A stretch of DNA of 64,000 nt from a virus. Shown here one piece after another: positions 45,866 through 58,324 of this stretch. The DNA lies in IMG/VR virus record IMGVR_UViG_3300032296_002111, positions 3,880 to 67,879 of that record. One strand, given 5' to 3'. A program made the translations under genes and the position numbers. How positions within the stretch are numbered: position 1 is the stretch's first letter; each line of letters begins with the position of its first letter. The notes beneath the pieces are model-generated. The model ran no database searches, was not told the origin of the DNA, and saw only the letters and a program-made list of their open reading frames with translations.

Positions 45866-46031
45866 GCACGTGGAAGTGGAAGATGGGGAACTCCTCATCC
45901 GTTCTTCCAATGGAACGATGGCCATTGTGCCAAAGAACATGGCTAAGTTTATTTCCGAACATATAAAGAGCGGGAATCACCATGTCGTTGACCATTATGT
46001 GAAATCATTACAGCCACTGAAAGAAAAATGA
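45849..46031 (+). CDS. Hypothetical protein
   Basis: VEVEDGE motif; overlaps neighbours. Confidence 0.5.
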   Translation: MESTSKHVEVEDGELLIRSSNGTMAIVPKNMAKFISEHIKSGNHHVVDHYVKSLQPLKEK

Positions 46032-46156
46032 GCAAGGCAAAAGCCACTACGTCCTCCGTTAAAACCACATTCGGTAAAAGGAGAGAGGGAGAGCATAAGA
46101 AATCATACGGGCCGAAAGCAAATAAGCCCAAGAAATATAAAGGACAAGGGAGATGA
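46028..46156 (+). CDS. 42-aa basic protein
   Basis: Hand-translated MSKAKATT...PKKYKGQGR*; ATGA overlaps at both ends. Confidence 0.6.
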   Translation: MSKAKATTSSVKTTFGKRREGEHKKSYGPKANKPKKYKGQGR

Positions 46157-46521
46157 ATAAATTAAAAGACCTTTGGGTGGAGTGGCATGAGGCCCTCCTA
46201 GCCCCCGTTTACTACTTCGGGTTTCTCCTGATTTACAATTACGTTAGCGTTTGGCTTCACGACGAGGCTGCCGCATTGTATCCCATAGGAAGGTATGTAG
46301 ATATGTTGTCTGTTCCTTCCCGTTATTACATTGTTGTTCTCATAGGAACGCTCGGCTTCCGCATCAACACTCCCTCTTTATTCAAGGCTGTGTTCGGGGA
46401 CAGAGCAAGCGGAAAGCTCCGTGACAATATTGTTAAGGACAATCATTTCCAAACGCTATGGCTCGCATTATTCTCCTATGGCTTGCATTTGCTTATAGCG
46501 GCTCTTGTGTCGCTCAAATAA
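46153..46521 (+). CDS. Multi-TM membrane protein (holin candidate)
   Basis: Three hydrophobic segments; directly upstream of endolysin. Confidence 0.5.
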   Translation: MNKLKDLWVEWHEALLAPVYYFGFLLIYNYVSVWLHDEAAALYPIGRYVDMLSVPSRYYIVVLIGTLGFRINTPSLFKAVFGDRASGKLRDNIVKDNHFQTLWLALFSYGLHLLIAALVSLK

Positions 46522-46961
46522 GCTGCATAAAGGAACAAGCTAAACGTCTTATTGGAACACGGGAAGGCCCTGTAAACAACAGAGGTCCTCGTGTTGATAG
46601 CATTATACGTTACGCAGGAGGCACTCCCGGACAGGCGTGGTGTTCCTACACAATGATTTATTTATGGAAAAAGTGCAATATTCCGCACAAAGGCGTGAAC
46701 GGAATGGCAATGTCGTGGGCTAAGGCCGACAAGGCTGTCAAAGGTCCTGTGAGAGAAACGGATTTGTTTACGGTGTTCAATAGGGCCTTGGGGCGCATAG
46801 GCCACGTGGGGATGGTGTACAGGGTGTTTCCAGAGGAACGCTTCTTCACGTCCTTTGAAGGCAACGTGAACGCAAGGGGCGACAGGGAAAGCAAGCGGTC
46901 AATGGCAGGATGCCTCATGAGAGAGTATTCTGTGGCCAATGGGTTTTATAGGTGGCTGTAG
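46458..46961 (+). CDS. CHAP-domain endolysin with signal/anchor peptide
   Basis: GQAWCSY, GHVG, FEGN CHAP motifs; NNRGPRVD; hydrophobic N-terminus. Confidence 0.8.
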   Translation: MARIILLWLAFAYSGSCVAQISCIKEQAKRLIGTREGPVNNRGPRVDSIIRYAGGTPGQAWCSYTMIYLWKKCNIPHKGVNGMAMSWAKADKAVKGPVRETDLFTVFNRALGRIGHVGMVYRVFPEERFFTSFEGNVNARGDRESKRSMAGCLMREYSVANGFYRWL

Positions 46962-46963
46962 CC

Positions 46964-47329
46964 CTATCCTTTATTTAGTTTGTCGTATCGGACCTGAGTC
47001 GCTCTTTCTTTTATATTGAGTTCTGACATCAATCTTTTAACCCTACGCTCGTTTTTCGGGACACTGGATTGCCCCTTCTTTTTTTTAGACTTCCTGCCTA
47101 TTTTGGTTGTCTTGTGAATCGTAGTGTGGCAACTTTCGCATAGTGTAATAAGGGCGCTGCTTGGATATTGCCAAGGCTTCCTCCCTTCCAAATAATATTT
47201 ATGATGGCAATTAAGATGAGACTTTGAGCCGCATTTTTGACAGCAGAATAAGTCCCTCTTGTATATTGAGAGCCTTTTGTCGGCCCATTCTGGGGAGAGG
47301 AGTAGTTCTTTATATTCTTCTTTTGTCAT
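46964..47329 (-). CDS. HNH endonuclease
   Basis: MTKEEYKELLLSPEWADKR..RDLFCCQKC..LNCHHKYY..LITLCESCH; probable ATG at 47329. Confidence 0.85.
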   Translation of the reverse strand: MTKEEYKELLLSPEWADKRLSIYKRDLFCCQKCGSKSHLNCHHKYYLEGRKPWQYPSSALITLCESCHTTIHKTTKIGRKSKKKKGQSSVPKNERRVKRLMSELNIKERATQVRYDKLNKG

Positions 47330-47341
47330 AATAAATAAAGT

Positions 47342-47364
47342 AAAAAAAAGGCCCGAAGGCCCAA
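47342..47364 (-). terminator. Short intrinsic terminator
   Basis: Minus strand gggcc-ttcg-ggccc followed by T-run. Confidence 0.55.
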
Positions 47365-47372
47365 TTTTAACT

Positions 47373-47621
47373 TTAAGACGGAAGCTCCGGTAACGGCATC
47401 CAATGTGTCGTTCGCTTCGGCCATCCGAATTCACCATAAGGTATAACGCCAATATTCTCATCATCTGTAAGGACATTATGCGCTCTGCACTCTAAATGAC
47501 TTTTGTTGGTGGATGCGTTAATCCAAAGTTCAAAACTACAGCACACGATGTTTTTGCCATCTGTCACTAACATAGGCGTGTTCAATGGAGGCTTCTGGTC
47601 TTTTACTGAAATCCAATTCAT
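47373..47621 (-). CDS. DUF551-like phage protein
   Basis: MNWISVKDQKP...THWMPLPELP. Confidence 0.85.
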   Translation of the reverse strand: MNWISVKDQKPPLNTPMLVTDGKNIVCCSFELWINASTNKSHLECRAHNVLTDDENIGVIPYGEFGWPKRTTHWMPLPELPS

Positions 47622-47750
47622 ATATTTTTTTATTTATGATTTACGTATTCTTTTATTGAGGCAAAAAGGAAGGGCCGAATCAGCCCCTCTTTTCGTCAAG
47701 CTATTAACCAAATTAACACTATTTCAAAAAGCGTTTTTTGTTGTGAATGA

Positions 47751-47787
47751 TATATCACGCAATATTGCGTATATGGTGTAGTTATGT
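47751..47787 (+). repeat. attI-like site 1
   Basis: tatatcacgcaatattgcgtatatggtgtaG|TTATGT; contains 14-bp palindrome acgcaatattgcgt; recurs at 51333 and 52556. Confidence 0.75.
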
Positions 47788-47793
47788 GCCATT

Positions 47794-48033
47794 TTACAGA
47801 AACCACCTGAAATTAATGAAACATACGCTTAACCATAATCTTCTATCTTGTGGCTGCCAAAACACACCGAATAAACTTCTATCTATTTCGCAATTATCAA
47901 ACGTAAGCACAGCAAATCCAATGCTCATATATTTGTTCAGCCACAAGTCAAACAAGTGAATTTGATAATCAAAACGGCACATAACACAGTATTTGCGTAA
48001 TGCCTTTCGTAATTCTAATAATCTTTTCTGCAT
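47794..48033 (-). CDS. Cassette 1 hypothetical protein (start in attC loop)
   Basis: N-terminal ALRKYCVMCR is encoded by the attC arm. Confidence 0.6.
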   Translation of the reverse strand: MQKRLLELRKALRKYCVMCRFDYQIHLFDLWLNKYMSIGFAVLTFDNCEIDRSLFGVFWQPQDRRLWLSVCFINFRWFL

Positions 48034-48100
48034 ATTTTTAAATTTTGTATTTCAATTAAAATTCTGTATTGGCACTACGCAAATACTCGGCACGTTAGCA
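47979..48100 (+). repeat. attC-like site 1
   Basis: acatAAC..agtatttgcgtaatgcc / ggcactacgcaaatact..GTTagca (16/17 paired); ggcacataac complements gttatgtgcc at 47781. Confidence 0.85.
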
Positions 48101-48109
48101 ACAATGCCA

Positions 48110-48349
48110 CTAACCTTGTATCTTATATTCAGTTGGTATTATGTGCATAGGTATTATCATTGCCCCACCGCACAAATTACACGTTTCTACTCCACTACTT
48201 ATTGAAGTAGGCGAGCCGTACCAATTTTGAACTAATACCTTACCATCGCCACCGCACTTTGGGCATAATTGATAAGGCACAGTTGCTAACACAGTATAAC
48301 CGCAATTGGCGGGTTTCTGCGTTTTTGAAACTTTTGTTTTCTTTTCCAT
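48110..48349 (-). CDS. Cassette 2 DnaJ-type zinc-finger protein
   Basis: CPKCGGDG...CNLCGG; start in attC loop. Confidence 0.65.
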   Translation of the reverse strand: MEKKTKVSKTQKPANCGYTVLATVPYQLCPKCGGDGKVLVQNWYGSPTSISSGVETCNLCGGAMIIPMHIIPTEYKIQG

Positions 48350-48417
48350 TTTTATCTGTATTTTGAAAGTTATTACTACTTAATCCGCCAACTGACGGTT
48401 ATACTCGACCGTTAGCG
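48284..48417 (+). repeat. attC-like site 2
   Basis: tgctAAC..agtataaccg..ttggcgg / ccgccaa..cggttatact..GTTagcg; gttgctaac complements gttagcaac at 48094. Confidence 0.9.
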
Positions 48418-48639
48418 GTAATTGATTGTACGGTGTTTAATCTGTTCAATACCTTTAAAGTTCCGCTTTGCTTCTGCAACAAGTTCATTCATTGTACAGC
48501 CACCTTCTCTTTTTCGTAGTTCCTCAATCATCCAAATAAGCGGAACTAAATCTCCGTTGTTGTCTTGTGGTGATTCACAACTACCGCTAACATCGGTTTT
48601 GCAAAAAAGCCGCTTTAGTGCTAATTTTAATCTTTTCAT
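48412..48639 (-). CDS. Cassette 3 hypothetical protein
   Basis: TAA stop lies in core G|TTA; start in attC loop. Confidence 0.6.
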   Translation of the reverse strand: MKRLKLALKRLFCKTDVSGSCESPQDNNGDLVPLIWMIEELRKREGGCTMNELVAEAKRNFKGIEQIKHRTINYR

Positions 48640-48717
48640 CTCTATTGTATTTTTAGTTGTTAATTAAACTTTTGTTTTTCAAATACGGCTTCATCGCAAA
48701 GCCATTTTCCGTTAGTG
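48585..48717 (+). repeat. attC-like site 3
   Basis: cgctAAC..ggttttgc..aagccg / cggctt..gcaaagcc..GTTagtg; caactaccgctaac complements gttagcggtaattg at 48411 (13/14). Confidence 0.85.
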
Positions 48718-48723
48718 GCAAGC

Positions 48724-49167
48724 TTAACAAACGTTAGCGATAAACTGACCACTTTCTAATTCTATATGTTTACAACCTTTTTGATTTTTCAATTCATCAA
48801 GCCATAAATCCCAATTATTTGAAATAAGATTTATAAAAGCATCAGTAGAACCTCTTTCTTTATATCGTTTCAAATATTCTTCTTTCAATTCTTTTTTTGG
48901 ATAAACTAACGTAAATTCTAATCCATTTTCTACTAAAGCGTCTCTAACCTCTTTATGGCTTGAAATGAAAATTCTTGAATAACCTTCTGATATTTTTTCT
49001 TTGATATGCTCAATATAGTTTTGTGGAAAATTAGCCTTATCAAATTTACTACTATCGCTATCGGTTGCAAATCCTTGTGGCATATAATCAGCATCTCTGT
49101 AGCAATAAGATGTTTTACCAGTTCCAGGAAAGCCAGCCACTAACATCGGTTTGGCAAAATCTGCCAT
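48724..49167 (-). CDS. Cassette 4 P-loop kinase-like protein
   Basis: AGFPGTGKT Walker A, DSDSSKF, FPQNYIEHIK; probable ATG at 49167 in attC loop (ORF track extends to 49245). Confidence 0.75.
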   Translation of the reverse strand: MADFAKPMLVAGFPGTGKTSYCYRDADYMPQGFATDSDSSKFDKANFPQNYIEHIKEKISEGYSRIFISSHKEVRDALVENGLEFTLVYPKKELKEEYLKRYKERGSTDAFINLISNNWDLWLDELKNQKGCKHIELESGQFIANVC

Positions 49168-49231
49168 TGAAATTTGTGCGAAAATTGAACTTTCCGTTAG
49201 GCAGCCTTCGCCAACCTGCAAAACGTTAGAA
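49138..49231 (+). repeat. attC-like site 4
   Basis: cactAAC..ggtttggc..ctgcc / ggcag..gccaacc..GTTagaa; gccactaac complements gttagtggc at 48711. Confidence 0.85.
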
Positions 49232-49237
49232 ACAACA

Positions 49238-49507
49238 TCACCCATTCACCCACTCCCAAACAAGGTCGTCCTCCTTTCCTTTCTCTATCTTCCCTTTCTT
49301 CTCCGTCACTACCCACTGACAGAAGGCAACGAGCTGTTCGCACCGTAGGCTCGTGTTGAATATCTGATTCTTCACAACGCCACAGAGGGCCTTCTGGTCT
49401 TCCATTGTTAGCCTGATGTCGCCCATGCCCACATGAGCGTCAGAGTTTCGTAGGGATTGGAACGCCTTCTCAAGGGTGGCTAAGTTCCTCACTGTTGGTC
49501 TTCTCAT
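49238..49507 (-). CDS. Hypothetical protein
   Basis: Backbone early gene; ATGA coupling. Confidence 0.55.
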   Translation of the reverse strand: MRRPTVRNLATLEKAFQSLRNSDAHVGMGDIRLTMEDQKALCGVVKNQIFNTSLRCEQLVAFCQWVVTEKKGKIEKGKEDDLVWEWVNG

Positions 49508-49944
49508 ATTTTGTCTTCTATCTTATACTTCTCAATAACGTCCAACGGAACGAAAAGCTGCTTCTCAAATCCCTGGTCCTTGAAGTGGAGATATTGTCCT
49601 TGCTCCAGAACGACAGATTTCGGAAATTTATACGTGCCAACGTCATCCCGAAGTTCAATGTTGTCAAATAGCTTTCCCTCTCGTATCATGTATTCGTTAA
49701 AGCCATATGAATTGTTCTTCCGCATCAAGTGGCTCTCTCGTGTCCGTATCAATTCCAACGTGCGTTCCTTCAAGTCTACACGGCCTACATCCCGCCCGAA
49801 GTTCTCCGAGGCCAAGCGTAGCTGAATGTATAAATGGGAAGGGGTGCGGAACACATGGAACGCATCGCCCTCCTTGTTGAACACAGAGCCATCAGCCTTC
49901 TTTAGGCTACTTGGCTTCTTGTGTTGCGTTAGTGTCTTCTTCAT
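49504..49944 (-). CDS. Hypothetical protein
   Basis: Probable start MKKTLTQ at 49944; HLMRKNNSYGFN..GFEKQLF. Confidence 0.6.
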   Translation of the reverse strand: MKKTLTQHKKPSSLKKADGSVFNKEGDAFHVFRTPSHLYIQLRLASENFGRDVGRVDLKERTLELIRTRESHLMRKNNSYGFNEYMIREGKLFDNIELRDDVGTYKFPKSVVLEQGQYLHFKDQGFEKQLFVPLDVIEKYKIEDKI

Positions 49945-50236
49945 TTGTTTCGAAATTGTTGATGTGGTGGACGAACCGTTCTCTTTCCTTGGCATCAAGG
50001 TCGTAAATCTTCCACACGAGGCCAACAATAGCAGAATTGATGTCGTCCTCCGCCTGTGCTACTTCTTTACCGAGGCCCTTGTGTAAATAGCGCTCAAACT
50101 CCTCAGCGTGGTGCATGAGGCGATTGAAGTGCATCTTTGCTTCATTGTGGAGAACCTTGTCTCCGTTCTTTATCACCCATCCGGATTCGATTACGCCTCG
50201 GACGAAGCAGGTGAACTTGCTGAAATCGTTTTTCAT
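49907..50236 (-). CDS. Hypothetical protein
   Basis: Preceded by TATATTTG box (50245-50252, minus strand). Confidence 0.6.
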   Translation of the reverse strand: MKNDFSKFTCFVRGVIESGWVIKNGDKVLHNEAKMHFNRLMHHAEEFERYLHKGLGKEVAQAEDDINSAIVGLVWKIYDLDAKERERFVHHINNFETNEEDTNATQEAK

Positions 50237-50348
50237 AACAGGGGCAAATATATAATTATTTCACAATGCAAGAAAAATAAATAAAAAAAGGGATGATTAT
50301 AAACCACCCCCTTTCGATTTTACACCAAGTTCAAACCGAATAAAACTT

Positions 50349-50507
50349 TTATTTCTTCTTAGCCGTCTTGGCCGCAGCCTTGAACGCAGCAGCCGTAGGC
50401 GCTCCCTTCGTTCCGGGCTTTCTCATTTTCTCTCCACTTCCAGCAGCAATGCGCTTCCTTTTGGCATGGATGGCATCGTACAATCCTGGGTCTCCTGGCT
50501 TTTTCAT
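50349..50507 (-). CDS. 52-aa basic protein
   Basis: Hand-translated [32 protein letters not shown]...AAKTAKKK*. Confidence 0.65.
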
Positions 50508-50674
50508 TTCTTCTTCATTGTTTGTTTAGCCATAGGCTTGGCCGCTGGCTTGTTTGACTTTCCTGCTTTGTTGAGGGCGATTGCTACACTTTGCTTCATT
50601 GGAACCTTCTCCTTTCGCATTGTCTTAATATTCTCGCCTATCACCTTTTGCGAACTTCCAGATTTTAATGGCAT
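50504..50674 (-). CDS. 56-aa basic protein
   Basis: Hand-translated [36 protein letters not shown]..; ATGA overlap. Confidence 0.65.
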
Positions 50675-50713
50675 AACTTTAAAAGTTTAAAATGTTTGCG
50701 TAAATATAAACAA

Positions 50714-51094
50714 TTAGCCCCAAACCAAATCCTTTAGATTGGGGGGGCGATACCCTTCGGGTTTCATCACTTTGCCGTCCTCCCGAAGCAGGGGCTTCCC
50801 ATCAACGAGCTTGCTCATGTTACTTGCGTGTACCTCTGCGAATATCGCAGGCAGCTTGTGGGCAATCCCGAACTCCTGTGCCGTTCCGAACAGAATGTAC
50901 AGGCAGTCTGCTATGCCATCAGCCACTTCCACGAGGTCGCCCTTTATAGAAGCCTTCAGAAGCTCCGTTACTTCCTCTTGGAGTAATGTATGCCTGAACG
51001 TAGAACGTGACGCTGAGAGCGTTTTTGGTGCGTCATGCACGGGATGCCCGAAGGCGTTGTGGAAGTCCTCCACCATTTTGATTTCCTTTTCCAT
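50714..51094 (-). CDS. MazG/PRA-PH-like NTP pyrophosphohydrolase
   Basis: VEDFHNAF, LLQEEVTEL, EVADGIADCLY, EVHASNMSK, REDGKVMKP. Confidence 0.85.
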   Translation of the reverse strand: MEKEIKMVEDFHNAFGHPVHDAPKTLSASRSTFRHTLLQEEVTELLKASIKGDLVEVADGIADCLYILFGTAQEFGIAHKLPAIFAEVHASNMSKLVDGKPLLREDGKVMKPEGYRPPNLKDLVWG

Positions 51095-51095
51095 A

Positions 51096-51302
51096 TTATG
51101 CCAAAGATAAGTTGTGTTCTTCTAATTTCTCAATAAGCCATGTACGGACATAATCCGTATCAAACTCCTTGTCATCCCATCCCTTGTCATGGGTTCGGAG
51201 CATGGATTGGAGTTCAAAAATGATGTGCTTGTACTTCCATCCGTTGAGGGCATCCATATATGCCTCCTCATCATCAGGCGTGAATTTAAGTATCACTTCC
51301 AT
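51096..51302 (-). CDS. Hypothetical protein
   Basis: ORF track; operon packing. Confidence 0.6.
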   Translation of the reverse strand: MEVILKFTPDDEEAYMDALNGWKYKHIIFELQSMLRTHDKGWDDKEFDTDYVRTWLIEKLEEHNLSLA

Positions 51303-51332
51303 AATTATATGAGGACAAACTGTCCCAAGGTA

Positions 51333-51368
51333 ATATGATGCAATATTGCGTATATGGTGTAGTTAGCT
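51333..51368 (+). repeat. attI-like site 2
   Basis: 26 bp gcaatattgcgtatatggtgtagtta (51340-51365) identical to 47759-47784. Confidence 0.75.
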
Positions 51369-51575
51369 GCCATTGTTTGACAACTTACTCAATACCCATT
51401 TAGCACCTTTTTCAAATGCTAATATCTTATCAATGTTTTTACGCTGCTCATTTAAGTCTTTACCTTTGTAGGCATTTACTGCGGCAGTTTCAATATCCAT
51501 ATTAGATACAACGGCATCTAACAAGCGGTTAGCGTCATTGCCGTTTTCGTGGTTAATTAAAGTTTTATTTTCCAT
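51363..51575 (-). CDS. Cassette 5 hypothetical protein
   Basis: MENKTLINHENGNDANRLLDAV..AFEKGAKW; ATG at 51575 in attC loop; stop in G|TTA. Confidence 0.6.
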   Translation of the reverse strand: MENKTLINHENGNDANRLLDAVVSNMDIETAAVNAYKGKDLNEQRKNIDKILAFEKGAKWVLSKLSNNGS

Positions 51576-51649
51576 ATCAAATTTTGTTTTTAAGTTAAAG
51601 TTTTGTGTTCCAAAGTCGGCAACGAACGCCAACCGCCATACCGTTATAA
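51516..51649 (+). repeat. attC-like site 5
   Basis: atctAAC..gcggttagcgtcattgccg / cggcaacgaacgccaaccgc..GTTataa; acaacggcatctaac vs gttagctgccattgt at 51362 (13/15). Confidence 0.85.
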
Positions 51650-51991
51650 GCAATATTTTTCACGCATTACCCTCCTAATTACATCATCCTTGTTTATTAA
51701 CTGTAACCCCTTCAATGATGAACTTATTGGCTTCATCACTTTGTCTGCTGTATATATTGATGAAATTGGATTAGAAATTTTCCCACATCTACATTTTTCA
51801 ATCCTATAATCAACATATAATCTATCACATTCGGTATATCTTTCTGCATCTAAAAAAATTTCTTTAGATGGTTGTTCATAATATAAGCCAATAAGTTTCC
51901 ACCTGTGAATGTGAAAAAAACGGCTTATAACAAGGCATATATTCAATGCCGAGTTTCGTAGTTTAATCAACTTTTGTTCTTCGTTTTTCAT
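51644..51991 (-). CDS. Cassette 6 hypothetical protein (His/Cys motifs)
   Basis: HIHRWK...KCRCGK; start in attC loop; stop in G|TTA. Confidence 0.6.
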   Translation of the reverse strand: MKNEEQKLIKLRNSALNICLVISRFFHIHRWKLIGLYYEQPSKEIFLDAERYTECDRLYVDYRIEKCRCGKISNPISSIYTADKVMKPISSSLKGLQLINKDDVIRRVMREKYCL

Positions 51992-52057
51992 TTTATCTGT
52001 TTATTAATTTTTGTGTTTCAAATTCCGCACCTGACCACAATCCAAGTGCCGTTATGC
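51925..52057 (+). repeat. attC-like site 6 (degenerate arms)
   Basis: gcttataac complements gttataagc at 51643; ends ccGTTatgc; arm pairing poor. Confidence 0.65.
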
Positions 52058-52276
52058 ACCATAAGTCTTCTCATAATACTCCACACTCCTATCAAACCCT
52101 CTGAACGCAAGGTTCATGGCAATGTAGGCTGCATCGTGAGCCTCAATTATATGGTCTCGCTCCATTTCAAGTGCTTGTTGGAATAGTCCTTCAAACTGAA
52201 CCTTCTGCTCATGGGTTAGGTGAAGTCTTAATGCCTCTTGTAGCCAGATGACTGCCGTTTGGTTTTTATTCTCCAT
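52052..52276 (-). CDS. Hypothetical protein, KQTAVxWL family
   Basis: MENKNQTAVIWL..QQALEMERDHI..YYEKTYGA; probable ATG at 52276. Confidence 0.65.
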   Translation of the reverse strand: MENKNQTAVIWLQEALRLHLTHEQKVQFEGLFQQALEMERDHIIEAHDAAYIAMNLAFRGFDRSVEYYEKTYGA

Positions 52277-52511
52277 AGGTTTTCTGGAAATAAGTGTCAA
52301 AGTCATCCGGGATTCTATCATCAGCCGGAGGCATATAGCCTTGTTCAATCATCCTGATGTAGTGGCATCGTTTGAATCCTTCTATGTAGGCTGCCTTTAG
52401 TTGCTCCTGGTACATTTCCTTGGCCTTATTGTAGGCATTCCAGAAACTTGCTGGATAGGACTCCGCATGAAGGCTATTCATGAAGAAGTCAATTGCGCTA
52501 TTCTGTTTCAT
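52266..52511 (-). CDS. Hypothetical protein, paralog of the adjacent gene
   Basis: MKQNSAI..KAKEMYQEQL..YFQKTYGE. Confidence 0.65.
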   Translation of the reverse strand: MKQNSAIDFFMNSLHAESYPASFWNAYNKAKEMYQEQLKAAYIEGFKRCHYIRMIEQGYMPPADDRIPDDFDTYFQKTYGE

Positions 52512-52555
52512 ATTTCTACGGATATTATTCTGATTTGCCGTTGATTAGTGCGTTA

Positions 52556-52592
52556 TATATCACGCAATATTGCGTAAATATGGTAGTTATAA
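52556..52592 (+). repeat. attI-like site 3
   Basis: tatatcacgcaatattgcgtaaatatggtaG|TTATAA; first 21 bp identical to site 1 with the same 30-nt distance to G|TT. Confidence 0.75.
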
Positions 52593-52598
52593 GCCATT

Positions 52599-52907
52599 TT
52601 ATGAAAACGATAACTCATCTTCGCAAATAGTTTGAATCATTGCAATTCTCATACCTGAACGTAAACCAAATTTCTCATCGTTGCAATCGACATCTTTAAT
52701 TTTAGCATAAACTTGTTTCCAAAATTCTATGTCTTTTTTCATTTCGTCAATAATCAAATCAACCAAATTGCAAAACATATCCCACGCTTGACCATCAAAT
52801 AAATCAAGGTTGTCTAAAACGAATTTTTGAAACTCATTTTTTGCTTCTTCGGAATTATATCTTTGATTTCCGAGTTGTATCATTTTTACTTTGTTATGCC
52901 ATTCCAT
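52599..52907 (-). CDS. Cassette 7 hypothetical protein
   Basis: AT-rich 102-aa ORF; start outside attC. Confidence 0.6.
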   Translation of the reverse strand: MEWHNKVKMIQLGNQRYNSEEAKNEFQKFVLDNLDLFDGQAWDMFCNLVDLIIDEMKKDIEFWKQVYAKIKDVDCNDEKFGLRSGMRIAMIQTICEDELSFS

Positions 52908-52954
52908 TTTTTTTTATAAATTAAATTGTTAAGCCAAACATGAATAAAAACAGC

Positions 52955-53050
52955 TTATAACAGTAGTTTGGCAAAATACCGCCACAAGCCTTTGTACTAA
53001 ATTTAAACATTCTGCAAGGCGGTACTTCGCCAAGCCACAAACCGTTAGAA
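52955..53050 (+). repeat. attC-like site 7
   Basis: ttatAAC..tttggcaaaataccgcc / ggcggtacttcgccaag..GTTagaa; aaaacagcttataac vs gttataagccatttt at 52586 (13/15). Confidence 0.85.
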
Positions 53051-53057
53051 AACATTG

Positions 53058-53261
53058 TTAATTAACCTCACCTATATCATATAGTTCCAAATGTGGAAAG
53101 TGTTTTTCAAAGTAAGGTTCTACTTCATCAACATCTTTTACCCATACAATAATCTTTCCTTCGTTTCCACTTTTGTTTTCAGTGAAATATACCTCAAAAC
53201 AACGTTTTCTAACAAAGTATAAACGTAATGTTTTCAGTTTTTCAATCAATCCTTTTATCAT
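53058..53261 (-). CDS. Cassette 8 hypothetical protein
   Basis: N-terminal TLRLYFVRKR is encoded by the attC arm. Confidence 0.6.
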   Translation of the reverse strand: MIKGLIEKLKTLRLYFVRKRCFEVYFTENKSGNEGKIIVWVKDVDEVEPYFEKHFPHLELYDIGEVN

Positions 53262-53326
53262 AATTTCAAGTTTTGTGTTTCAATTTAAGTTCAGTTAAAC
53301 ACTACGTTTATACTCAACCGTTATGC
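53207..53326 (+). repeat. attC-like site 8
   Basis: ttctAAC..agtataaacgtaatgttt / aaacactacgtttatact..GTTatgc (17/18); aacaacgttttctaac vs gttagaaaacattgtt at 53044 (15/16). Confidence 0.9.
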
Positions 53327-53641
53327 ATTCTTACCATTAATTAATGCATCCAGATTGCGAATGGAATCCTGCAAGTCTCTCCTTGCATCTTTAAGCACCT
53401 CCTCACGTTCCTCTCGTTCCTCAATCAGCATCTCAGCAAGGTCGCTAATGATGGCTGACAAGTCCGACCAATGGTCAAAGGTTGTAAGTTCGGACACAAG
53501 GTCTTCATTCTCTTTTAGGTCAATTCCTGGCATCATGGCCTTGAGAATCTCATCCCTTTCCTCCTCATACTTTTCGCTATTGGGCAGGATGATGAGGTCT
53601 CCACTTGCCCACTTCTCTAATTGTTCCTTAGTGTATTTCAT
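53321..53641 (-). CDS. Hypothetical acidic coiled-coil protein
   Basis: Backbone gene; stop coincides with the array-3 right core site. Confidence 0.6.
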   Translation of the reverse strand: MKYTKEQLEKWASGDLIILPNSEKYEEERDEILKAMMPGIDLKENEDLVSELTTFDHWSDLSAIISDLAEMLIEEREEREEVLKDARRDLQDSIRNLDALINGKNA

Positions 53642-53904
53642 AACTTCTCAATTTCTTGTTTTACTTCTTCCCAATAACTAATTAAAGCATCTACACCTAA
53701 CGCAATTGGTAATTTAATAATCTCATCTACTGCAATTAATGCACAGGCTTTTGCCAAGCCATTTCTATCCTTAAATTTGTTATAGCAATCATTATTCCAT
53801 TCACAATCTAATGGCATACCCATTTGATTGTAGAAAATCCTTAACAACTCTTCTGCTTTTTCTTCAGGATTCATAACTTCTCTATTGCTCTGTTTAAATA
53901 CCAC
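53638..53904 (-). CDS. Hypothetical protein (probable start MNPEEKA)
   Basis: AKACALIAVDEII..YWEEVKQEIEKL pattern. Confidence 0.65.
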   Translation of the reverse strand: MVFKQSNREVMNPEEKAEELLRIFYNQMGMPLDCEWNNDCYNKFKDRNGLAKACALIAVDEIIKLPIALGVDALISYWEEVKQEIEKL

Positions 53905-54155
53905 ACGGCCTTCTCAAGGTCTTGCTTCATTGCTCCCTTCTTGCCTGCCCGAAGGATGTACTTCAAAGCGTTACCGAGGCAGAAGTCTTTTCCCCATCCC
54001 TGAGCCTCAATTATCTTGATGGCCTCGTAAGCGTTGTCCTCTCCCCCATAATGTTCGGGGTGATTAACCATTTCGGAAGGCTTGCTCTTCCTCACCCATT
54101 CTCCTTCCCTTCCTCTGTCGTGAATGATGTTGTCGTTGTTAATAATCGAACCCAT
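53871..54155 (-). CDS. DUF3310 (SaV-like) protein
   Basis: MVNHPEHYG, FCLGNALKYILRAGKK, DLEKAVWYL. Confidence 0.85.
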   Translation of the reverse strand: MGSIINNDNIIHDRGREGEWVRKSKPSEMVNHPEHYGGEDNAYEAIKIIEAQGWGKDFCLGNALKYILRAGKKGAMKQDLEKAVWYLNRAIEKL

Positions 54156-54399
54156 AATCGTTACAAAATATTGGTGTTTGTTCTCCCATGTACGCTCCTA
54201 ATACGTTGTAGTCAAAGTATTCAATCGCCTCCTCCATTGTCATCTCGCTGTCCTTAACTAATATCTCAAGGCACTTTGTTGTGCTGTAAATAAGCCTGCC
54301 AGACATTTCGTCTATGCCTATAACGGCCTCATCAAATCCATCGGCCTTTAGGAAGGTGTCGTCCGGATTGTTCTCAAGTATTATTTCGAGGATGTTCAT
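54139..54399 (-). CDS. Conserved phage hypothetical protein
   Basis: LKADGFDEAVIG..EEAIEYFDYNVLGAYMGEQTPIF. Confidence 0.7.
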   Translation of the reverse strand: MNILEIILENNPDDTFLKADGFDEAVIGIDEMSGRLIYSTTKCLEILVKDSEMTMEEAIEYFDYNVLGAYMGEQTPIFCNDYGFDY

Positions 54400-54881
54400 T
54401 TTATTTGCAGGCTAACATTGTCCTTCAAGAACGCTCCCGGAACTTCCTCTCCGGCCTTCAGAGCATTACCAATAGCCGTCTTGCTTGCCTCCTTCTTAAC
54501 GACAAAGAAAGATTCGGGAAGTTCCGCCTCGTCCACTATTTCCACAGCCTGTGAACGCCTTGTGGACAACTTCATCAGGGGCGTTTCCCATTTCCCATTC
54601 TGTCCGTACAGCATAAGGGCATGGAGAAGCGTTTCCTTCAAGCGAGCAACGGAGTTCTCCTTTGTCTTCTTGATGGCCTGAATGCGCTTGATTTCAGAGG
54701 CAGCAGCTTCGATTTCTGATTCCCATTTGAGAATCAACTTTGCGTACCCATCGGCCTTGTGGCTGAAGTTCTCACGATTGATGGCAAGTTCCTCCATCAG
54801 CTCGTCTGTGGCCTCACCCCCTGCCTCCTCAATAATGGAGGCGAGGGCAAGGAACTCTTGTGTGATTTCCCAGAGTGTCAT
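54396..54881 (-). CDS. Siphovirus Gp157-like protein
   Basis: MTLWEI, EIKRIQAIKK, RRSQAVEI, KTAIGNALKAGEEVPGA. Confidence 0.85.
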   Translation of the reverse strand: MTLWEITQEFLALASIIEEAGGEATDELMEELAINRENFSHKADGYAKLILKWESEIEAAASEIKRIQAIKKTKENSVARLKETLLHALMLYGQNGKWETPLMKLSTRRSQAVEIVDEAELPESFFVVKKEASKTAIGNALKAGEEVPGAFLKDNVSLQIK

Positions 54882-54898
54882 TGTTTATATTTGTTTAG

Positions 54899-54995
54899 CA
54901 GTCGGGGCGAGAGTCGAACTCGCATTGCGCATGAAACATCTGAATGTGTAATACATTCATAGTTTCACGGTGCATTACCTTTATGCTACCCGACT
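54899..54995 (-). tRNA. tRNA-like RNA with elongated anticodon arm (no assignable isotype)
   Basis: Acceptor AGTCGGG/CCCGACT, D-arm GCAT-AAAGGTA-ATGC, T-arm GCGAG-TTCGACT-CTCGC; anticodon arm replaced by a long hairpin. Confidence 0.7.
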
Positions 54996-55048
54996 ATGTT
55001 CCGGTCTTTCCCGGATGTCATTTATTTTATATTTTAACTTATTGAATA

Positions 55049-55708
55049 TTAGAAGGGCAATAAGTCCGCTTCATTATCACCATCTAACGACATCGGGGAA
55101 ATGGCAGGAGCTGGAGCAGCCTTTGGTTTCGACATCATGGCCTTGTACTCATCAGAACCTTTTATCTTCTCCTGAAGGAACGCGGGCATTGATTCAAACT
55201 TAGCTTGGTCGAACTCATCAAGGCTGAACTCAAATGTAGGATTGATTTGCGGAGGGCAAGCCATTCCTTTCATCACAGGCGTAGCACTTGCGATTTCATC
55301 AAACACTTTAGAGGGGTCTTTACGTCCCTGCTTGTGAATGATGTTAAGCAAGCAAGGAACACCAAGCAACTTGGTTACGTCAAAGGCAGCAGCCTCCTCG
55401 TCTGTAAATGCTTTGCCTCTCCATCCCGTCAGGAATGCCCGAAGGTTGGCCTTCTCATTCATGGATAGCGTGAACTCCTTGCTGATTACACAAGGCTGCT
55501 CTCCCTTCTCCTGACTGAATACCTTCAGCTCTGTCGGGAGTTCAAATGTGATGCGTACCTTGTGAACCACTTTTTTCTGCCCCAGTATCTCCTCTTCACG
55601 AGTTCCGAGGTCAATCATCGAATAACAACGGGCTACATAAGTGCCTGCTGGGATGGGAGTGTAAGCGACACCATCGCCTCCACCCACGTTTTTAGCTATT
55701 ATTGCCAT
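55049..55708 (-). CDS. Putative single-stranded DNA-binding/replication protein
   Basis: PIPAGTYVARCYSMIDLGT, FTLSMNEKANLR, FDVTKLLGVPC, acidic tail ending DLLPF; TACATTTG box at 55752-55759. Confidence 0.6.
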   Translation of the reverse strand: MAIIAKNVGGGDGVAYTPIPAGTYVARCYSMIDLGTREEEILGQKKVVHKVRITFELPTELKVFSQEKGEQPCVISKEFTLSMNEKANLRAFLTGWRGKAFTDEEAAAFDVTKLLGVPCLLNIIHKQGRKDPSKVFDEIASATPVMKGMACPPQINPTFEFSLDEFDQAKFESMPAFLQEKIKGSDEYKAMMSKPKAAPAPAISPMSLDGDNEADLLPF

Positions 55709-56049
55709 AATCGTGTGAATAAATTGTTTAATTGTTTTGCTTTAGTGGGAGCAAATGTATATTCCCTTATTGAATATTCCAAATCTCCCTATAAAATATT
55801 GATACATAAATAGTTCTGTTGCGTTGCTGATGCTGACAATCACACGAAAAATGGCACGTGTTTGAAAGCATATTTCCAACTTTTCCGTTCATTTCAGAAT
55901 TGTCAAACGAACAAAAACGTAAATTCCGAAGGCCAAAAACACCCCTAAATTGTCAAAAAAGGCTTTTTCGTTTCTTGACCGGAAGGAGCGGAAGGCATTC
56001 ACGCCTGTCGTAAGCATGACGGCAGAGGTGAAAAGCAGGGCTGTCGTTG

Positions 56050-56232
56050 TCATTGCTGTCCGAATATTTGCATAGCAAGGAATAACATTGCTATGAATGA
56101 AAGGAACAAATAAGTGTAGCCGAGGCGAACATTGTCCACATTGTCCGGCCTGCTGAAGTTAACGTGGCTGCGCCAGATGCAGAAGAACATGGCGAGTACG
56201 TTCGAGACGAATAGTAGGATTTCTGTAATCAT
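56050..56232 (-). CDS. Small two-TM protein
   Basis: Two hydrophobic helices. Confidence 0.45.
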   Translation of the reverse strand: MITEILLFVSNVLAMFFCIWRSHVNFSRPDNVDNVRLGYTYLFLSFIAMLFLAMQIFGQQ

Positions 56233-56247
56233 TGGTAAATATAATTA

Positions 56248-56613
56248 TTATTCTTCTCCGTACTTATTGTTAAGCATATACTTGATGTGTTCACGCTCAT
56301 AGAAATGATTCTCTATTTGCCGTGCCTTCTCCATTGGCCTCTTCTCATCCTTCCCCTCCCATCTGTAATAGGAATCAAGCGTGGGGAAGGCTGCGTATGT
56401 ATGCCCGAAGGCGAGCATCCAAAACACTTCCAGTCCTTCGTTTGTGGAGTCATATCCACCATCAATGATAAGACCCATCCAATCGCTTTGTAACTCTCTA
56501 CAAGTGTCGAAGAACTGTTCTGCCGTAGGCAGGCCATCGGAAGGCTCAGGGGCGTCGTATAACGAGGGAATTTCACCCTCGTAGTATAGCGTCATTGTTT
56601 CTCTAAATGTCAT
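56248..56613 (-). CDS. Hypothetical protein
   Basis: ATGA-coupled early gene. Confidence 0.55.
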   Translation of the reverse strand: MTFRETMTLYYEGEIPSLYDAPEPSDGLPTAEQFFDTCRELQSDWMGLIIDGGYDSTNEGLEVFWMLAFGHTYAAFPTLDSYYRWEGKDEKRPMEKARQIENHFYEREHIKYMLNNKYGEE

Positions 56614-56810
56614 GTCCGTGATGCTCTAATGTATTCAAATGATTTGTTCAATAACTCTTTCGCCTCCTCCTTGCCAGAGCCTGGAAGGCGTTCATTGAGG
56701 GCGTACATATTCTGCACTCCTTCTATTCCCTGAAAAGGCAGGGAGCGTTCCTGACAGGCTTCCCGAAGCCGTGCCATGCGTGTTTCCAGTTTGCGTAAAT
56801 GAGGTGTCAT
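56610..56810 (-). CDS. Hypothetical protein
   Basis: ATGA-coupled. Confidence 0.5.
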   Translation of the reverse strand: MTPHLRKLETRMARLREACQERSLPFQGIEGVQNMYALNERLPGSGKEEAKELLNKSFEYIRASRT

Positions 56811-57103
56811 GATTGTACAGAGAAAACGAGTTCAGGTTTGTTTTTGGCGAAGTGGAATTTCACTCCTTGAAATTGTACGAGAACAACGTCTATAAATTCG
56901 CTCTCCCAAATTCTTACAGGCGTTTCGTGCCATAGCCCCATCACCTTATAGTTCCAGTTGTCGTACTTGACAATGATGCTGACATATTCTCGTCCATACT
57001 CGTCGGCAGGATGGTGCTTAAAGTCGTAGAATGTTGCGCCTAACAAATCGTTCATGTAGGCTGCTGTTTCCTCTAAGGAGGAAGGAAGTTTATGCTTGCT
57101 CAT
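56807..57103 (-). CDS. Hypothetical protein
   Basis: ATGA-coupled. Confidence 0.55.
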   Translation of the reverse strand: MSKHKLPSSLEETAAYMNDLLGATFYDFKHHPADEYGREYVSIIVKYDNWNYKVMGLWHETPVRIWESEFIDVVLVQFQGVKFHFAKNKPELVFSVQS

Positions 57104-57242
57104 AGTGTTGCTTGATTAGTTGTTGAATTTTCTTTTTGAGAATCGTTTTGTCTGATGTCCGTACACGGAATGACATTACGGACGTGGTGAAGGGAAGGGG
57201 TTTCCTCCCACGTTTGTTAGGCTTTGGCAGTATTGGCTTCAT
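57090..57242 (-). CDS. Small DNA-binding protein candidate (AT-hook/RHH-like)
   Basis: MKPILPKPNKRGRKPLP..VMSFRVR..; probable internal start of ORF 57090-57347. Confidence 0.5.
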   Translation of the reverse strand: MKPILPKPNKRGRKPLPFTTSVMSFRVRTSDKTILKKKIQQLIKQHYEQA

Positions 57243-57432
57243 GTGTTTCTTTATTGATTTGATTATGTGCTTTCCATGCCCATTCGAGTGAGCGTCCGAT
57301 GTAGTCCTCAGGGCTGTCATCACGAATGACAATTCCTGGTTCTTCAATCAGCAAATGAGCTGCCGTGAGGAGTTGTAGTGCCTTGTCAAGCAATTCCTTT
57401 GCTTGCGTAGCGTCTGAAGGTGTGTAATACAT
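57217..57432 (-). CDS. Hypothetical protein
   Basis: A-rich upstream; ORF track. Confidence 0.5.
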   Translation of the reverse strand: MYYTPSDATQAKELLDKALQLLTAAHLLIEEPGIVIRDDSPEDYIGRSLEWAWKAHNQINKETHEANTAKA

Positions 57433-57481
57433 ATTTGTTTGTGTTTAATTGTTTATGCAAGATTTGTGAAATAAATTGACA

Positions 57482-57784
57482 TTACCAAATTCTGTTTTCA
57501 AAATTGTGAAGAAATTTCTCAGGCGTTAAGAGTTGTTCCGGCCTTTCGTTCATACGTTCCCAATAGAGACGTTCTGTGAGGCCTACAGAAGCCCTGAGAA
57601 CGCTCCATATTCCGTCGCCTGTGTTTAGTTCGGCATGGAGGAAAAGCACGCTCAGGAGGCGTTCTTCTTTGTCGTTACGTATGTCCTCTGGTAGGTCATT
57701 CCAAAGCATTTCAGCTATTGGACTTGGGGAGAGTTCCGCCACCCATTCGATGGCGGATAGGCGGATGAATGTAGTGCGTTTCAT
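57482..57784 (-). CDS. Hypothetical protein
   Basis: ORF track; operon packing. Confidence 0.55.
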   Translation of the reverse strand: MKRTTFIRLSAIEWVAELSPSPIAEMLWNDLPEDIRNDKEERLLSVLFLHAELNTGDGIWSVLRASVGLTERLYWERMNERPEQLLTPEKFLHNFENRIW

Positions 57785-57789
57785 GTTCG

Positions 57790-58074
57790 TTATTGTTTAG
57801 GAGTTAGGTAAACTGACACTGTATTGTAAACCATGTGGTCTGCATGGTAATTTAAGGCAATGGAGGCAAGCGTTAGTAGTCCTTCGTTTTCCATTCCGTC
57901 AATAGCTTCCTGGATTTCCTCAATCCCGCAATATTTGCGGAAGTGTTCTGCCGAAAGGTTGATTTCTTGCTTGTCCTTTTCCGTTATTGTTTCGGGATGG
58001 CAGTAGTCTATTTGAACGGAATAGTTCTTTATGTCTTTCACAATGGAAAGGACATTTTTTGCTGTTGTTTTCAT
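57790..58074 (-). CDS. Hypothetical protein
   Basis: A-rich upstream; ORF track. Confidence 0.55.
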   Translation of the reverse strand: MKTTAKNVLSIVKDIKNYSVQIDYCHPETITEKDKQEINLSAEHFRKYCGIEEIQEAIDGMENEGLLTLASIALNYHADHMVYNTVSVYLTPKQ

Positions 58075-58096
58075 TTTGCTGTTTTGTTTTCAGTTA

Positions 58097-58324
58097 TTAA
58101 ATATTTTCCCATCCTTCGAGGGCTTCCAAGGGCGTACCAATTGGCCGCAATCCGTAGGGTTCTGCATCAAGGTAGTAATCGAATGTAAAGCCTGCTGATT
58201 CCGTTTCTGTAAGCATTTCTGCCAGTTCTGAATAACTAAGGCCGTTTGCTAATTCGTAGCGGTTGAATATAGCCTGTAATGCTTCAGGCCATGTTTCAAA
58301 AGGTGTTTCGAATAAGTCTTTCAT
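58097..58324 (-). CDS. Hypothetical protein (probable start MKDLFETP)
   Basis: GFTFDYYLDAEPYGLRP. Confidence 0.6.
   Translation of the reverse strand: MKDLFETPFETWPEALQAIFNRYELANGLSYSELAEMLTETESAGFTFDYYLDAEPYGLRPIGTPLEALEGWENI

Follow-up and report, generated by a model that had tools for sequence, protein, structure and literature searches.

Cassette arrays in a lytic-type phage

The window analysed here, a stretch of 64,000 nt, belongs to a lytic-type phage whose record of 67.9 kb carries terminal repeats. It contains three small arrays that together hold eight attC-like hairpins (TAAC...GTTA), and each array is laid out with a simple attI-like site first and a full hairpin last. In the list below the slash in G/TTA marks the cassette boundary, and distances run from the start ATG to the core G.

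47669-47689, minus: terminator-like hairpin, just downstream (in the minus sense) of array 1 and attI-like site 1
47754-47784, plus: attI-like site 1; palindrome 47757-47770, 10 nt, then G/TTA
47782-48097, minus: cassette 1; ORF1 47794-48033, 79 aa; hairpin 47982-48097; ATG in loop, 48 nt before core
48095-48414, minus: cassette 2; ORF2 48110-48349, 79 aa, zinc-ribbon-like; hairpin 48287-48414; ATG in loop, 59 nt before core
48412-48714, minus: cassette 3; ORF3 48412-48639, 75 aa, stop at the core TTA; weak hairpin 48588-48714; ATG in loop, 48 nt before core
48712-49228, minus: cassette 4; ORF4 48724-49167, 147 aa, P-loop protein; weak hairpin 49141-49228; ATG at loop/stem edge, 23 nt before core
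51340-51365, plus: attI-like site 2, pattern match
51363-51646, minus: cassette 5; ORF5 51363-51575, 70 aa; hairpin 51519-51646; ATG in loop, 53 nt before core
51644-52054, minus: cassette 6; ORF6 51644-51991, 115 aa; degenerate hairpin 51928-52054; ATG 60 nt before core
52564-52589, plus: attI-like site 3, pattern match
52587-53047, minus: cassette 7; ORF7 52599-52907, 102 aa; short hairpin 52958-53047; ATG outside hairpin
53045-53323, minus: cassette 8; ORF8 53058-53261, 67 aa; hairpin 53210-53323; ATG in loop, 48 nt before core

The minus strand carries all eight cassette ORFs, as the sequence-only reading had stated and the ORF call confirmed. They also run with the surrounding phage operon, as that reading held: 31 of the 35 ORFs chosen by the call between 46,964 and 58,897 share their orientation. 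Stop codons, which had been placed in or within about 16 nt of the left core, were measured at 0-15 nt from the cassette boundary, and in three of the eight (ORF3, ORF5 and ORF6) the stop is indeed the complement of the core TTA. Plus-strand ORFs of 54-81 aa are also present within six cassettes. A terminator scan returned further terminator-like sites at 50315-50285 and 47362-47349, and within the arrays nothing but two weak matches of 5 pairs each (51950-51934 and 48556-48541).

A profile search of the whole phage record for a tyrosine recombinase gave no match to TIGR02249 or PF00589, and no intI lies adjacent to the attI-like sites anywhere in the record. Since the record is without intI, the window is by the published definition a CALIN with attI-like sites and not a complete integron.

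Putative recombination sites and cassette boundaries

The TAAC and GTTA ends are found in all eight hairpins, with TAAC starting at the first position of each hairpin as listed and GTTA at 48094, 48411, 48711, 49225, 51643, 52051, 53044 and 53320; past GTTA, the match to GTTRRRY is only loose. In the available part of Nivina et al. 2016 (PMC5027507), the cores of canonical attC sites are AAC/GTT, their inverted repeats are imperfect, the terminal loop varies and the length is 57-141 nt; one strand folds better owing to G.T pairs, and cassette ends are complementary across the core. The present hairpins, which measure 88-128 nt, resemble canonical sites in these respects, although not all eight fold stably. 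In every cassette, 11-13 of 14 positions in the flank of the left core are complementary to the left end of that cassette, and unlike in canonical sites, as described in that part of the paper, this R-box complementarity runs to about 10-15 nt. The rule given there for unpaired bases does not hold here either: in all six sites that could be resolved the extra unpaired bases sit on one and the same arm, namely the one with the 5'-AAC of the better-folding strand, opposite to the canonical arrangement.

Five of the hairpins are more stable than shuffled sequences (hairpins 1, 2, 5, 7 and 8, with z of -3.51, -4.00, -3.64, -3.22 and -2.45), whereas hairpins 3, 4 and 6 are no stabler than shuffles in situ (z of -0.59, -1.04 and -1.49). 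In the ORF4-type family, the paired fraction of 119 arm cells is 87.4%, compared with 68.2% after shuffling; none of 500 shuffles reaches the observed value. Compensatory changes occur in 10 of 17 arm pairs of this family, the coding and non-coding arms thus changing in concert, and one G.U pair is retained in 7/7. An Rfam search gave only a chance-level match to osmY (E 0.3).

Cassettes are separate units, delimited at G/TT and encountered in different contexts. Cassettes 1 (L220-L222), 2, 4, 7 and 8 were found again in other viral contigs, always with the hairpin 5' of the gene. ORF4-type cassettes (L178, L181-L187) have the 5' hairpin and the body in common and diverge exactly outside both TAAC/ cores, into nine different downstream contexts. 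For ORF2-type cassettes (L212-L214) homology likewise ends at both cores, and that of the ORF1, ORF7 and ORF8 cassettes to their relatives also ends at the cores. Among the 24 loose ends of metagenome contigs that were listed, out of a larger set with 213 more, 10 fall at cores. Junctions at the left core (L179/L180, L224 and the ORF6 family) show that exchange is not confined to the right core. Recombination at the minus-strand G/TT had been named beforehand as an observation that would speak against the proposed polarity; this exchange complicates the reading of a gene start overprinted on attC and does not remove it.

The attI-like site ahead of each array has one and the same design, a 14-nt palindrome, 10 nt and then G/TTA; this pattern occurs three times in the window, where shuffled sequence predicts 0. 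Arrays headed by a motif of identical type also occur in other contigs (L003, L013, L018, L150-L165 and L220). Contigs of the source sample part ways immediately past 52589, the end of attI-like site 3. In contigs of cellular type, the motif follows remnants of an IntI-like recombinase that lie about 100-125 nt upstream and read toward motif and cassettes; such remnant and attI modules are repeated inside one contig (L153, L164). Full-length relatives of the remnants measure 450-575 aa with a long N-terminal extension, those with a named source come from Bacteroidota, and a palindrome and GTT site follows their genes. Against TIGR02249 they score 213-225 bits at a cut-off of 265 (0/5 pass), while two of the five exceed the cut-off of NF040815 (XerA/integron integrase).

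The cassettes behind the motif in these cellular-type contigs carry sense ORFs, the canonical polarity. The loci are few, and their putative cellular origin was judged from gene content and contig size; in them, a top-strand ORF ends at the hairpin in 3/3 hairpins detected, versus 2/11 in phage loci, the latter two ORFs being 47 and 52 aa long. Together with the 5' hairpin kept across contexts, the homology that ends at the cores and the order of each array from attI-like site to full hairpin, this contrast supports the claim that cassette polarity is inverted.

T4-type phages carry promoter-stem-loop cassettes, and the present hairpins might likewise be phage regulatory stem-loops beside morons, shuffled by homologous recombination between repeats with no integron-type recombinase involved. 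The phage does lack a recombinase, the loop motif TTGAAAYACAAAAYTT is conserved in five loops, the geometry is unlike that of canonical attC, and one contig of run X2 is without the entire attI and array 1 module. We nonetheless regard this explanation as quite improbable. Homology between contexts stops at 4-nt cores and not within repeats, and the arms co-vary instead of keeping their sequence. In cellular-type contigs recombinase remnants precede the attI motif, with canonical cassettes behind it, and the cores, imperfect arms and lengths agree with the attC traits in the available text of PMC5027507.

Coding strand and candidate start codons

That the plus-strand ORFs are the true genes, in canonical ORF-then-attC polarity, with the minus-strand frames accidental, is barely credible in spite of the plus-strand ORFs in six cassettes. 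Homologues were found for seven of the eight minus-strand ORFs (ORF1, 2, 3, 4, 6, 7 and 8), among them 42 representatives for ORF3, 1187 for ORF4 and four for ORF6, which contradicts the idea for those seven; expression of the plus-strand ORFs had been set down as grounds for abandoning the inverted reading. For ORF5 no homologue was found, and its Atlas scores are all below 0.9. Differences from relatives are biased toward the third codon position, with counts by position of [6,5,13] and [6,5,14] for ORF1 and of [2,3,7] and [13,3,27] for ORF7. Furthermore, ORF4 matches a PHROG family (phrog_4182, E 9.7e-56), its core encoding M-L-V immediately ahead of Walker A, and relatives carry Dam, MT-A70, Mom and N6/N4 methyltransferase genes on the strand equivalent to that of the cassette ORFs.

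Seven of the eight ATGs had been assigned to the attC loop. This agrees with our mapping, with the refinement that six lie within the loop (48033, 48349, 48639, 51575, 51991 and 53261) and 49167 at the loop/stem edge; the ATG of ORF7 (52907) lies 54 nt beyond its hairpin. From the hairpin ATG the frame is open through one arm and the core in 7/8 ORFs. The frame of ORF4 is also open upstream to an ATG at 49245, and that of ORF5 to a TTG at 51653. Across 24 viral loci, 15 of 28 sense-strand hairpins contain the beginning of an ORF no shorter than 40 aa, versus one of 12 antisense hairpins.

Could the hairpin instead be merely a structured 5' UTR of real, inverted cassettes, with translation from an ATG, GTG or TTG at the core or just after it? 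The open frame through the loop would then be a by-product of an A-rich loop poor in stop codons. Such a start is possible in 4-5 of the seven loop-ATG cassettes: in ORF1 an in-frame ATG lies inside the core, and ATG, GTG and TTG are found at or beside it in ORF4, ORF2 and ORF5, respectively. An ORF1 relative without a hairpin (L223) begins at the core Met as MCRFDYQ, an ORF4 relative (P0052) begins at the core position as MLVAAFPG, and the ORF4 homologue of T5-like phages begins only 4 codons before residue 9. The loop-coded peptides, moreover, differ widely in both length and sequence. Against this, ORF3, ORF6 and ORF8 have no in-frame core start, their next Met being at residue 37, at residue 86 or absent, and the ORF4-type cassettes L181-L186 have CTG at the core yet retain the loop ATG. 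An N6/N4 methyltransferase (L158), with its Pfam domain from residue 37, has no second ATG before motif IV, which makes the loop ATG its only usable start. In one attC subfamily, the ATG lies exactly 59 nt before the core in 7/7 cases, with the frame open in all and four unrelated bodies downstream. On this evidence an untranslated hairpin seems unlikely.

As to a portable start codon and N-terminus within attC, this part of the earlier proposal stands at the level of sequence, through the subfamily just described and through the four ORF6 homologues, whose body is common from V-I-S on and joined at the core to three leader types. An ORF1-type leader is found on a different body (L224), the arm-coded CKTDVS is common to ORF3 and the L158 methyltransferase, and GDCL directly follows the core in two more cassettes. 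For ORF3, 34 of 42 relatives match only from beyond the core, with residue 14 as the earliest position. The expectation that non-cassette homologues would lack the attC-derived peptide also held: it is absent from homologues without a hairpin (L215, L223 and those of T5-like phages). Judged from sequence, the proposal that the hairpin would usually supply the start codon and the first 7-20 amino acids is supported.

A probable reverse-polarity cassette layout

We conclude, with a probability of roughly 0.6, that the window holds integron-type cassettes with reversed coding polarity, in which the attC hairpin forms the coding 5' leader of the gene. The mobile unit would run from one G/TTA core to the next, with the gene on what is the non-coding strand of canonical cassettes, which would place the hairpin at its 5' end. 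The large A/T-rich loop would contain an untranslated leader together with the ATG of most cassettes; loop, inner arm and inverse core would provide the first 7-20 codons, and the cargo protein proper would begin right after the core. The cassettes appear to sit behind phage-borne attI copies of the site type that goes with IntI-like tyrosine recombinases of a Bacteroidota lineage, and as the phage has no recombinase, we infer that a host enzyme of this lineage inserts and exchanges them. Transcription would presumably come from the leftward phage operon. It may be by read-through from early promoters, as the sequence-only reading proposed; the observations that bear on this are the shared orientation and the lack of terminator-like sites within the arrays, apart from the two weak matches. 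The hairpin, carried along with each cassette, would serve as a self-contained module for translation initiation. The cargo of relatives, largely DNA-modification enzymes, suggests an anti-restriction use.

CALINs in phages have already been published. In its available part, Qi et al. 2023 (PMC9892861) reports them from virulent phages, including a Polaribacter (Bacteroidota) phage, with 5/6 of the phage attC sites tested recombined by IntI1, with typical same-direction cassettes, and with 'divergent' attC directions in one phage. The present arrays resemble these in being integrase-less attC arrays in lytic phages and in a DNA methyltransferase-rich cargo, here that of relatives. They differ in that each of the three arrays is headed by an identical attI-like site, and in that the genes are all antisense to attC polarity, with the start usually inside the hairpin; a start codon within attC is not described in that part of the paper. 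A limited literature search found no earlier description of reversed polarity with a start inside attC. Canonical cassettes, in the part of PMC5027507 available, likewise differ from those here, where the gene is on the opposite strand and the loop is coding. As given in the accessible portion of a review (PMC8876359), translation signals come from ORF-11 in attI1 and from short ORFs inside attC, and thus a recombination site provides initiation signals to cassette genes there as well; those ORFs act through termination-reinitiation to help a gene of normal polarity that lies downstream, whereas here the gene of the cassette seems to start within the attC of that cassette.

Integrons of the Treponema-type 'inverted integrase' group have the integrase co-oriented with the cassettes. 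The cellular-type remnants, which read toward the attI motif and cassettes, and the palindrome and GTT site after their full-length relatives are like this arrangement. Unlike it are the size of these relatives with their long extension, their scores below the TIGR02249 cut-off, and the repetition of modules within one contig.

A wider reading, which we put forward tentatively and at somewhat less than even odds, is that lytic Bacteroidota phages may keep a reverse-polarity cassette pool of their own, combining attC co-opted as initiation module, planted attI and a host recombinase. The module would consist of leader, ATG and a disposable leader peptide, insulated by structure, so that any cargo in a co-directional operon would be translated. 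Phages would plant several host-type attI copies in their own genomes, and with a borrowed host IntI-like recombinase they would trade anti-restriction genes, for example those for Dam, MT-A70, Mom and N6/N4 methyltransferases. Through exchange at the two cores, leaders and bodies would recombine in a way that resembles exon shuffling.

If our main reading is right, it would add a second integron cassette layout, with an antisense gene and attC as its coding 5' leader. Annotation tools that expect ORF-then-attC would mis-annotate such reversed cassettes. As unrelated bodies occur on one leader and one body with several leaders, the question of how cassettes are assembled becomes directly testable. 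A hairpin with its start region left unstructured would amount to a context-independent translation module of natural origin, and recombinase-less lytic phages could, via the machinery of their hosts, swap accessory genes at defined sites, probably for anti-restriction.

Hairpins, cores and the mobile unit

Eight imperfect hairpins, each bounded by a left TAAC and a right GTTA core, are found in the window, grouped as three arrays (cassettes 1-4, 5-6 and 7-8). Their cores are located as follows (left/right):

Hairpin 1, cores at 47982/48094
Hairpin 2, cores at 48287/48411
Hairpin 3, cores at 48588/48711
Hairpin 4, cores at 49141/49225
Hairpin 5, cores at 51519/51643
Hairpin 6, cores at 51928/52051
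Hairpin 7, cores at 52958/53044
Hairpin 8, cores at 53210/53320

The same attI-like site, composed of a 14-nt palindrome, 10 nt and then G|TTA, lies left of all three arrays, giving three occurrences in the window where none is expected by chance. In all eight cassettes the left-core flank is complementary to the cassette's own first bases at 11-13 of 14 positions and, folded as single-stranded DNA, the minus strand of each hairpin is stabler than the plus strand. Five hairpins are more stable than almost every shuffle (z -2.45 to -4.00), and hairpins 3, 4 and 6 do not rise above them (z -0.59, -1.04 and -1.49, respectively). A naive fold scan for TAAC...GTTA over the whole window could not separate the hairpin sites from background, and an Rfam search of 47,000-54,000 returned a chance-level match only. 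It should be noted that a MAFFT alignment of the eight sites put the arms out of register, and that the array parser, at a threshold of 10/14, placed some left cores wrongly (53063, and second 'cassettes' in the phage relatives L154/L165); these rows were excluded.

The arm beside the crossover core holds an unpaired spacer of 5-7 nt, against 0-3 nt on the other arm, and sites 2 and 5 additionally have an extrahelical T. In published attC sites, as described in PMC5027507, the extra unpaired bases are on the opposite arm, and by this comparison the window hairpins are mirrored. The mirrored geometry is common to phage and cellular-type hairpins, as read in the cellular-type locus L162 (480-605 relative to the attI G).

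While the complementarity of the cassette ends alone leaves the crossover core unsettled, a comparison of contexts identifies it. Cassettes of the type carrying ORF4, a P-loop protein, occur with 81-97% identity in loci L178 and L181-L187, where homology begins directly after the upstream TAAC| and stops directly after the downstream ...TAAC|, with nine different sequences beyond the downstream core. The upstream hairpin thus moves with the gene, and the downstream hairpin stays behind. The same pattern was found for ORF2 (L212-L214), and also for ORF1, ORF8 and ORF7. Furthermore, in phage relative L158 the left flank matches that of window array 1, yet two different cassettes come next. They encode Mom and an N6/N4 methyltransferase, and each has its ORF on the minus strand and its ATG in the loop. 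Since the upstream hairpin travels and homology breaks at the cores, the unit extends from one right core to the next. Judged from these alignments, the attC is on the 5' side of its gene, the reverse of the canonical cassette layout.

Further junctions are located at the left core (the L179/L180 fusions, L224 and the leaders of ORF6) and inside the loop (L227/L228). In L179/L180 (ORF4-type) and L227/L228 (ORF8-type) the bodies, i.e. the cargo proteins after the core, continue in frame from an upstream ORF and the outer arm is missing, the breakpoint being the left core in the former and inside the loop in the latter; they appear to be cassettes that became fixed as gene fusions. A 242-nt cassette at 3422-3663 of L165 has its left core just 33 nt from the cassette start, and a 45-aa minus-strand ORF entirely within the hairpin loop.

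Candidate gene starts inside the hairpins

Every one of the eight cassette ORFs is encoded on the minus strand. Seven have an ATG 23-60 nt ahead of the core, inside the loop or bordering it, as the sequence-only reading had proposed; ORF7 is the exception, starting 54 nt beyond the hairpin. The stop codons likewise fall where that reading had put them, 0-15 nt from the cassette boundary, with the core TTA used in three. Seven of the eight ORFs have homologues, and substitutions relative to these concentrate at the third codon position. ORF4 matches phrog_4182 (E 9.7e-56) and has 1187 related proteins, ORF3 has 42 representative relatives, and relatives of ORF1, ORF2, ORF7 and ORF8 were found in other viral contigs. 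ORF6 has four homologues and no close relative among viral contigs, and ORF5 has no homologue support. Pfam and PHROGs searches of the eight ORFs named only ORF4 above threshold.

Does translation start at the loop ATG, or at the core itself? The latter is possible for ORF1 and ORF4 (ATG at the core), ORF2 (GTG) and ORF5 (TTG), and some homologues do begin exactly at the core position. On the side of the loop ATG, one hairpin subfamily precedes four unrelated bodies (ORF2, L216, L217 and L218), and in 7/7 cases the ATG precedes the core by exactly 59 nt, in an identical frame; all its members share the arm-coded peptide ANCGYTVL. Similarly, ORF3 and the L158 methyltransferase share the arm-coded CKTDVS, and in the methyltransferase, where the conserved LYLGDCLE starts four codons after the core, no other ATG lies ahead of the catalytic motif. 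In two further cassettes GDCL is found just past the core.

If the leader, the N-terminal peptide coded by loop, arm and core, derives from attC, homologues outside cassettes should lack it, and this expectation is borne out in L215, L223, L188, L191 and T5-like phages, in which hairpin and leader are both missing. The N-terminus of L215 differs from the leader, L223 starts at a Met inside the core, and in L188 and L191 the cores are absent and the N-termini short. For ORF4, the alignment with T5-like phage homologues begins at residue 8-9, and one annotated CDS starts 4 codons earlier. From V-I-S, the core position, onward the four ORF6 homologues have a common body, and they carry leaders of three kinds; for ORF3 the match starts at residue 14 or later in 34 of 42 relatives, the core Val being residue 17. 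We infer from these comparisons that the loop ATG is the candidate translation start. No single rule emerged for the leader phase: phases 0, 2 and 1 occur in 7, 5 and 2 of 14 relatives, and in 4, 3 and 0 cases in the window.

Seven hairpins of the ORF4 type were aligned, and of 119 cells 87.4% are paired, compared to 68.2% in shuffles, with 0 of 500 shuffles reaching 87.4% and slid controls at 28-50%. Both sides have changed in 10 of 17 pairs, and one G.U pair, which pairs on the gene-sense strand only, is kept in 7/7. By eye, a Pro-to-His codon change in the coding arm is accompanied by a partner change in the non-coding arm. In 24 viral loci fetched via cassette proteins, an ORF of 40 aa or more begins within the hairpin and exits via the core in 15 of 28 sense-strand hairpins, against 1 of 12 on the antisense strand. 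The scan thresholds were arbitrary (-13 kcal/mol and 14 or more long-range pairs), and known sites such as L182 and L212 were missed.

attI-like sites and recombinases

The attI pattern matched 17 metagenome stretches. Phage relatives with the motif are L150/L160, L154/L165, L157 and L158/L163, and cellular-type contigs, a class judged by gene content and size, are L152/L164, L153/L159/L161 (one contig of 306,915 bp), L155 and L156/L162. Metagenome loci L151 and L166 and genome locus L168 were left out as chance matches, having unlike flanks and no cassette after the motif. In viral contigs the 16-nt pattern matched 69 stretches, only 3 of which have the extended motif, and the motif is absent from all 80 loci fetched via the neighbouring MazG-like gene.

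The sequence-only reading had proposed comparing the phage polarity with that of chromosomal arrays. In the contigs judged cellular-type, plus-strand cassette ORFs end at the hairpin, in a common scan with the same arbitrary thresholds at 3/3 hairpins detected, whereas among 11 phage hairpins a bottom-strand ORF starts inside in 5 and just after in 5. In the cellular-type contigs a co-oriented remnant of a tyrosine-recombinase C-terminus lies ~100-125 nt left of the attI motif, decayed in L161 and L153, and shares 80-90% identity with the C-termini of proteins of 450-575 aa, with Flavobacterium, Sphingobacteriaceae, Solitalea, Algoriphagus, Lacihabitans and Runella as named sources. A module of ~250 nt, composed of a decayed tyrosine-recombinase 3' end and the attI motif, is repeated within single cellular-type contigs (listed for L153, L161 and L164), with these copies:

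L164, ~208-470, module copy
L164, ~11667-11955, module copy
L153, ~2348-2623, module copy
L153, ~4555 to locus end, module copy

For five such recombinases the integron-integrase model is the best or second-best match at 213-225 bits, below its cut-off of 265, and therefore standard tools may miss them. Relatives of these IntI-like recombinases are present in 163 of 401 sampled Bacteroidota genomes. In loci L196-L211 (G168, G176, G280 and other genomes) a palindrome and GTT core, then apparent cassettes, often come after the recombinase gene. By eye, at least 5 of 16 loci (L198, L201, L203, L204 and L205) have, shortly after the end of the gene, a 16-24-nt palindrome 5-7 nt before a GTT core, and the phage attI-like site has the same plan.

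Even at E <= 1, neither the integron-integrase model nor the general tyrosine-recombinase domain matched anywhere in the whole virus record (67,879 bp with direct terminal repeats, the window covering bases 3880-67879), and Pfam found no recombinase or transposase among the 10 larger non-structural ORFs. A megablast of 46,000-56,000 against phage records gave no match. In one contig of sequencing run X2, just 4 other letters separate 47742 from 49244, and therefore the whole module of attI-like site and array 1 (47743-49243) is missing there. Related phages either have this module as a whole or lack it.

Expression and relation to known cassettes

By a greedy ORF call, 31 of 35 ORFs at 46,964-58,897 are on the minus strand, and therefore the cassette arrays sit within a leftward operon. 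Terminator-like sites outside the arrays are:

47689-47669, minus strand, at least 9 stem pairs
50315-50285, minus strand, at least 9 stem pairs
47362-47349, minus strand, 5 pairs

Inside the arrays only two terminator-like matches occur, of 5 pairs each. This predicted placement fits read-through transcription of the arrays. Sequencing run X17, although labelled RNA-Seq, is probably DNA and its contigs carry no strand information, and it was left out of the reading of expression. Five hairpin loops carry the motif TTGAAAYACAAAAYTT with at most 2 mismatches, 6-30 nt upstream of the loop ATG:

48040-48055, minus strand, TTGAAAYACAAAAYTT copy
48667-48682, minus strand, TTGAAAYACAAAAYTT copy
51598-51613, minus strand, TTGAAAYACAAAAYTT copy
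52006-52021, minus strand, TTGAAAYACAAAAYTT copy
53268-53283, minus strand, TTGAAAYACAAAAYTT copy

No further copy at this stringency is found elsewhere in the window, and inspection of the loops by eye gave no clean match to a Bacteroidota-type promoter.

Virulent phages with attC clusters but no integrase, with methyltransferase cargo and with sites recombined by IntI1, are described in PMC9892861. Translation aided by attI1, or by short ORFs inside attC, concerns genes of normal polarity in PMC8876359, whereas in the window the cassette's own gene would start inside its own attC. In the literature outside subscription journals we found neither a description of such cassettes nor a report of several attI copies in one phage. 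Taken together, the cassette anatomy is well supported, and we infer the expression mechanism and the acting enzyme, which may be a host IntI-like recombinase acting on the phage sites.
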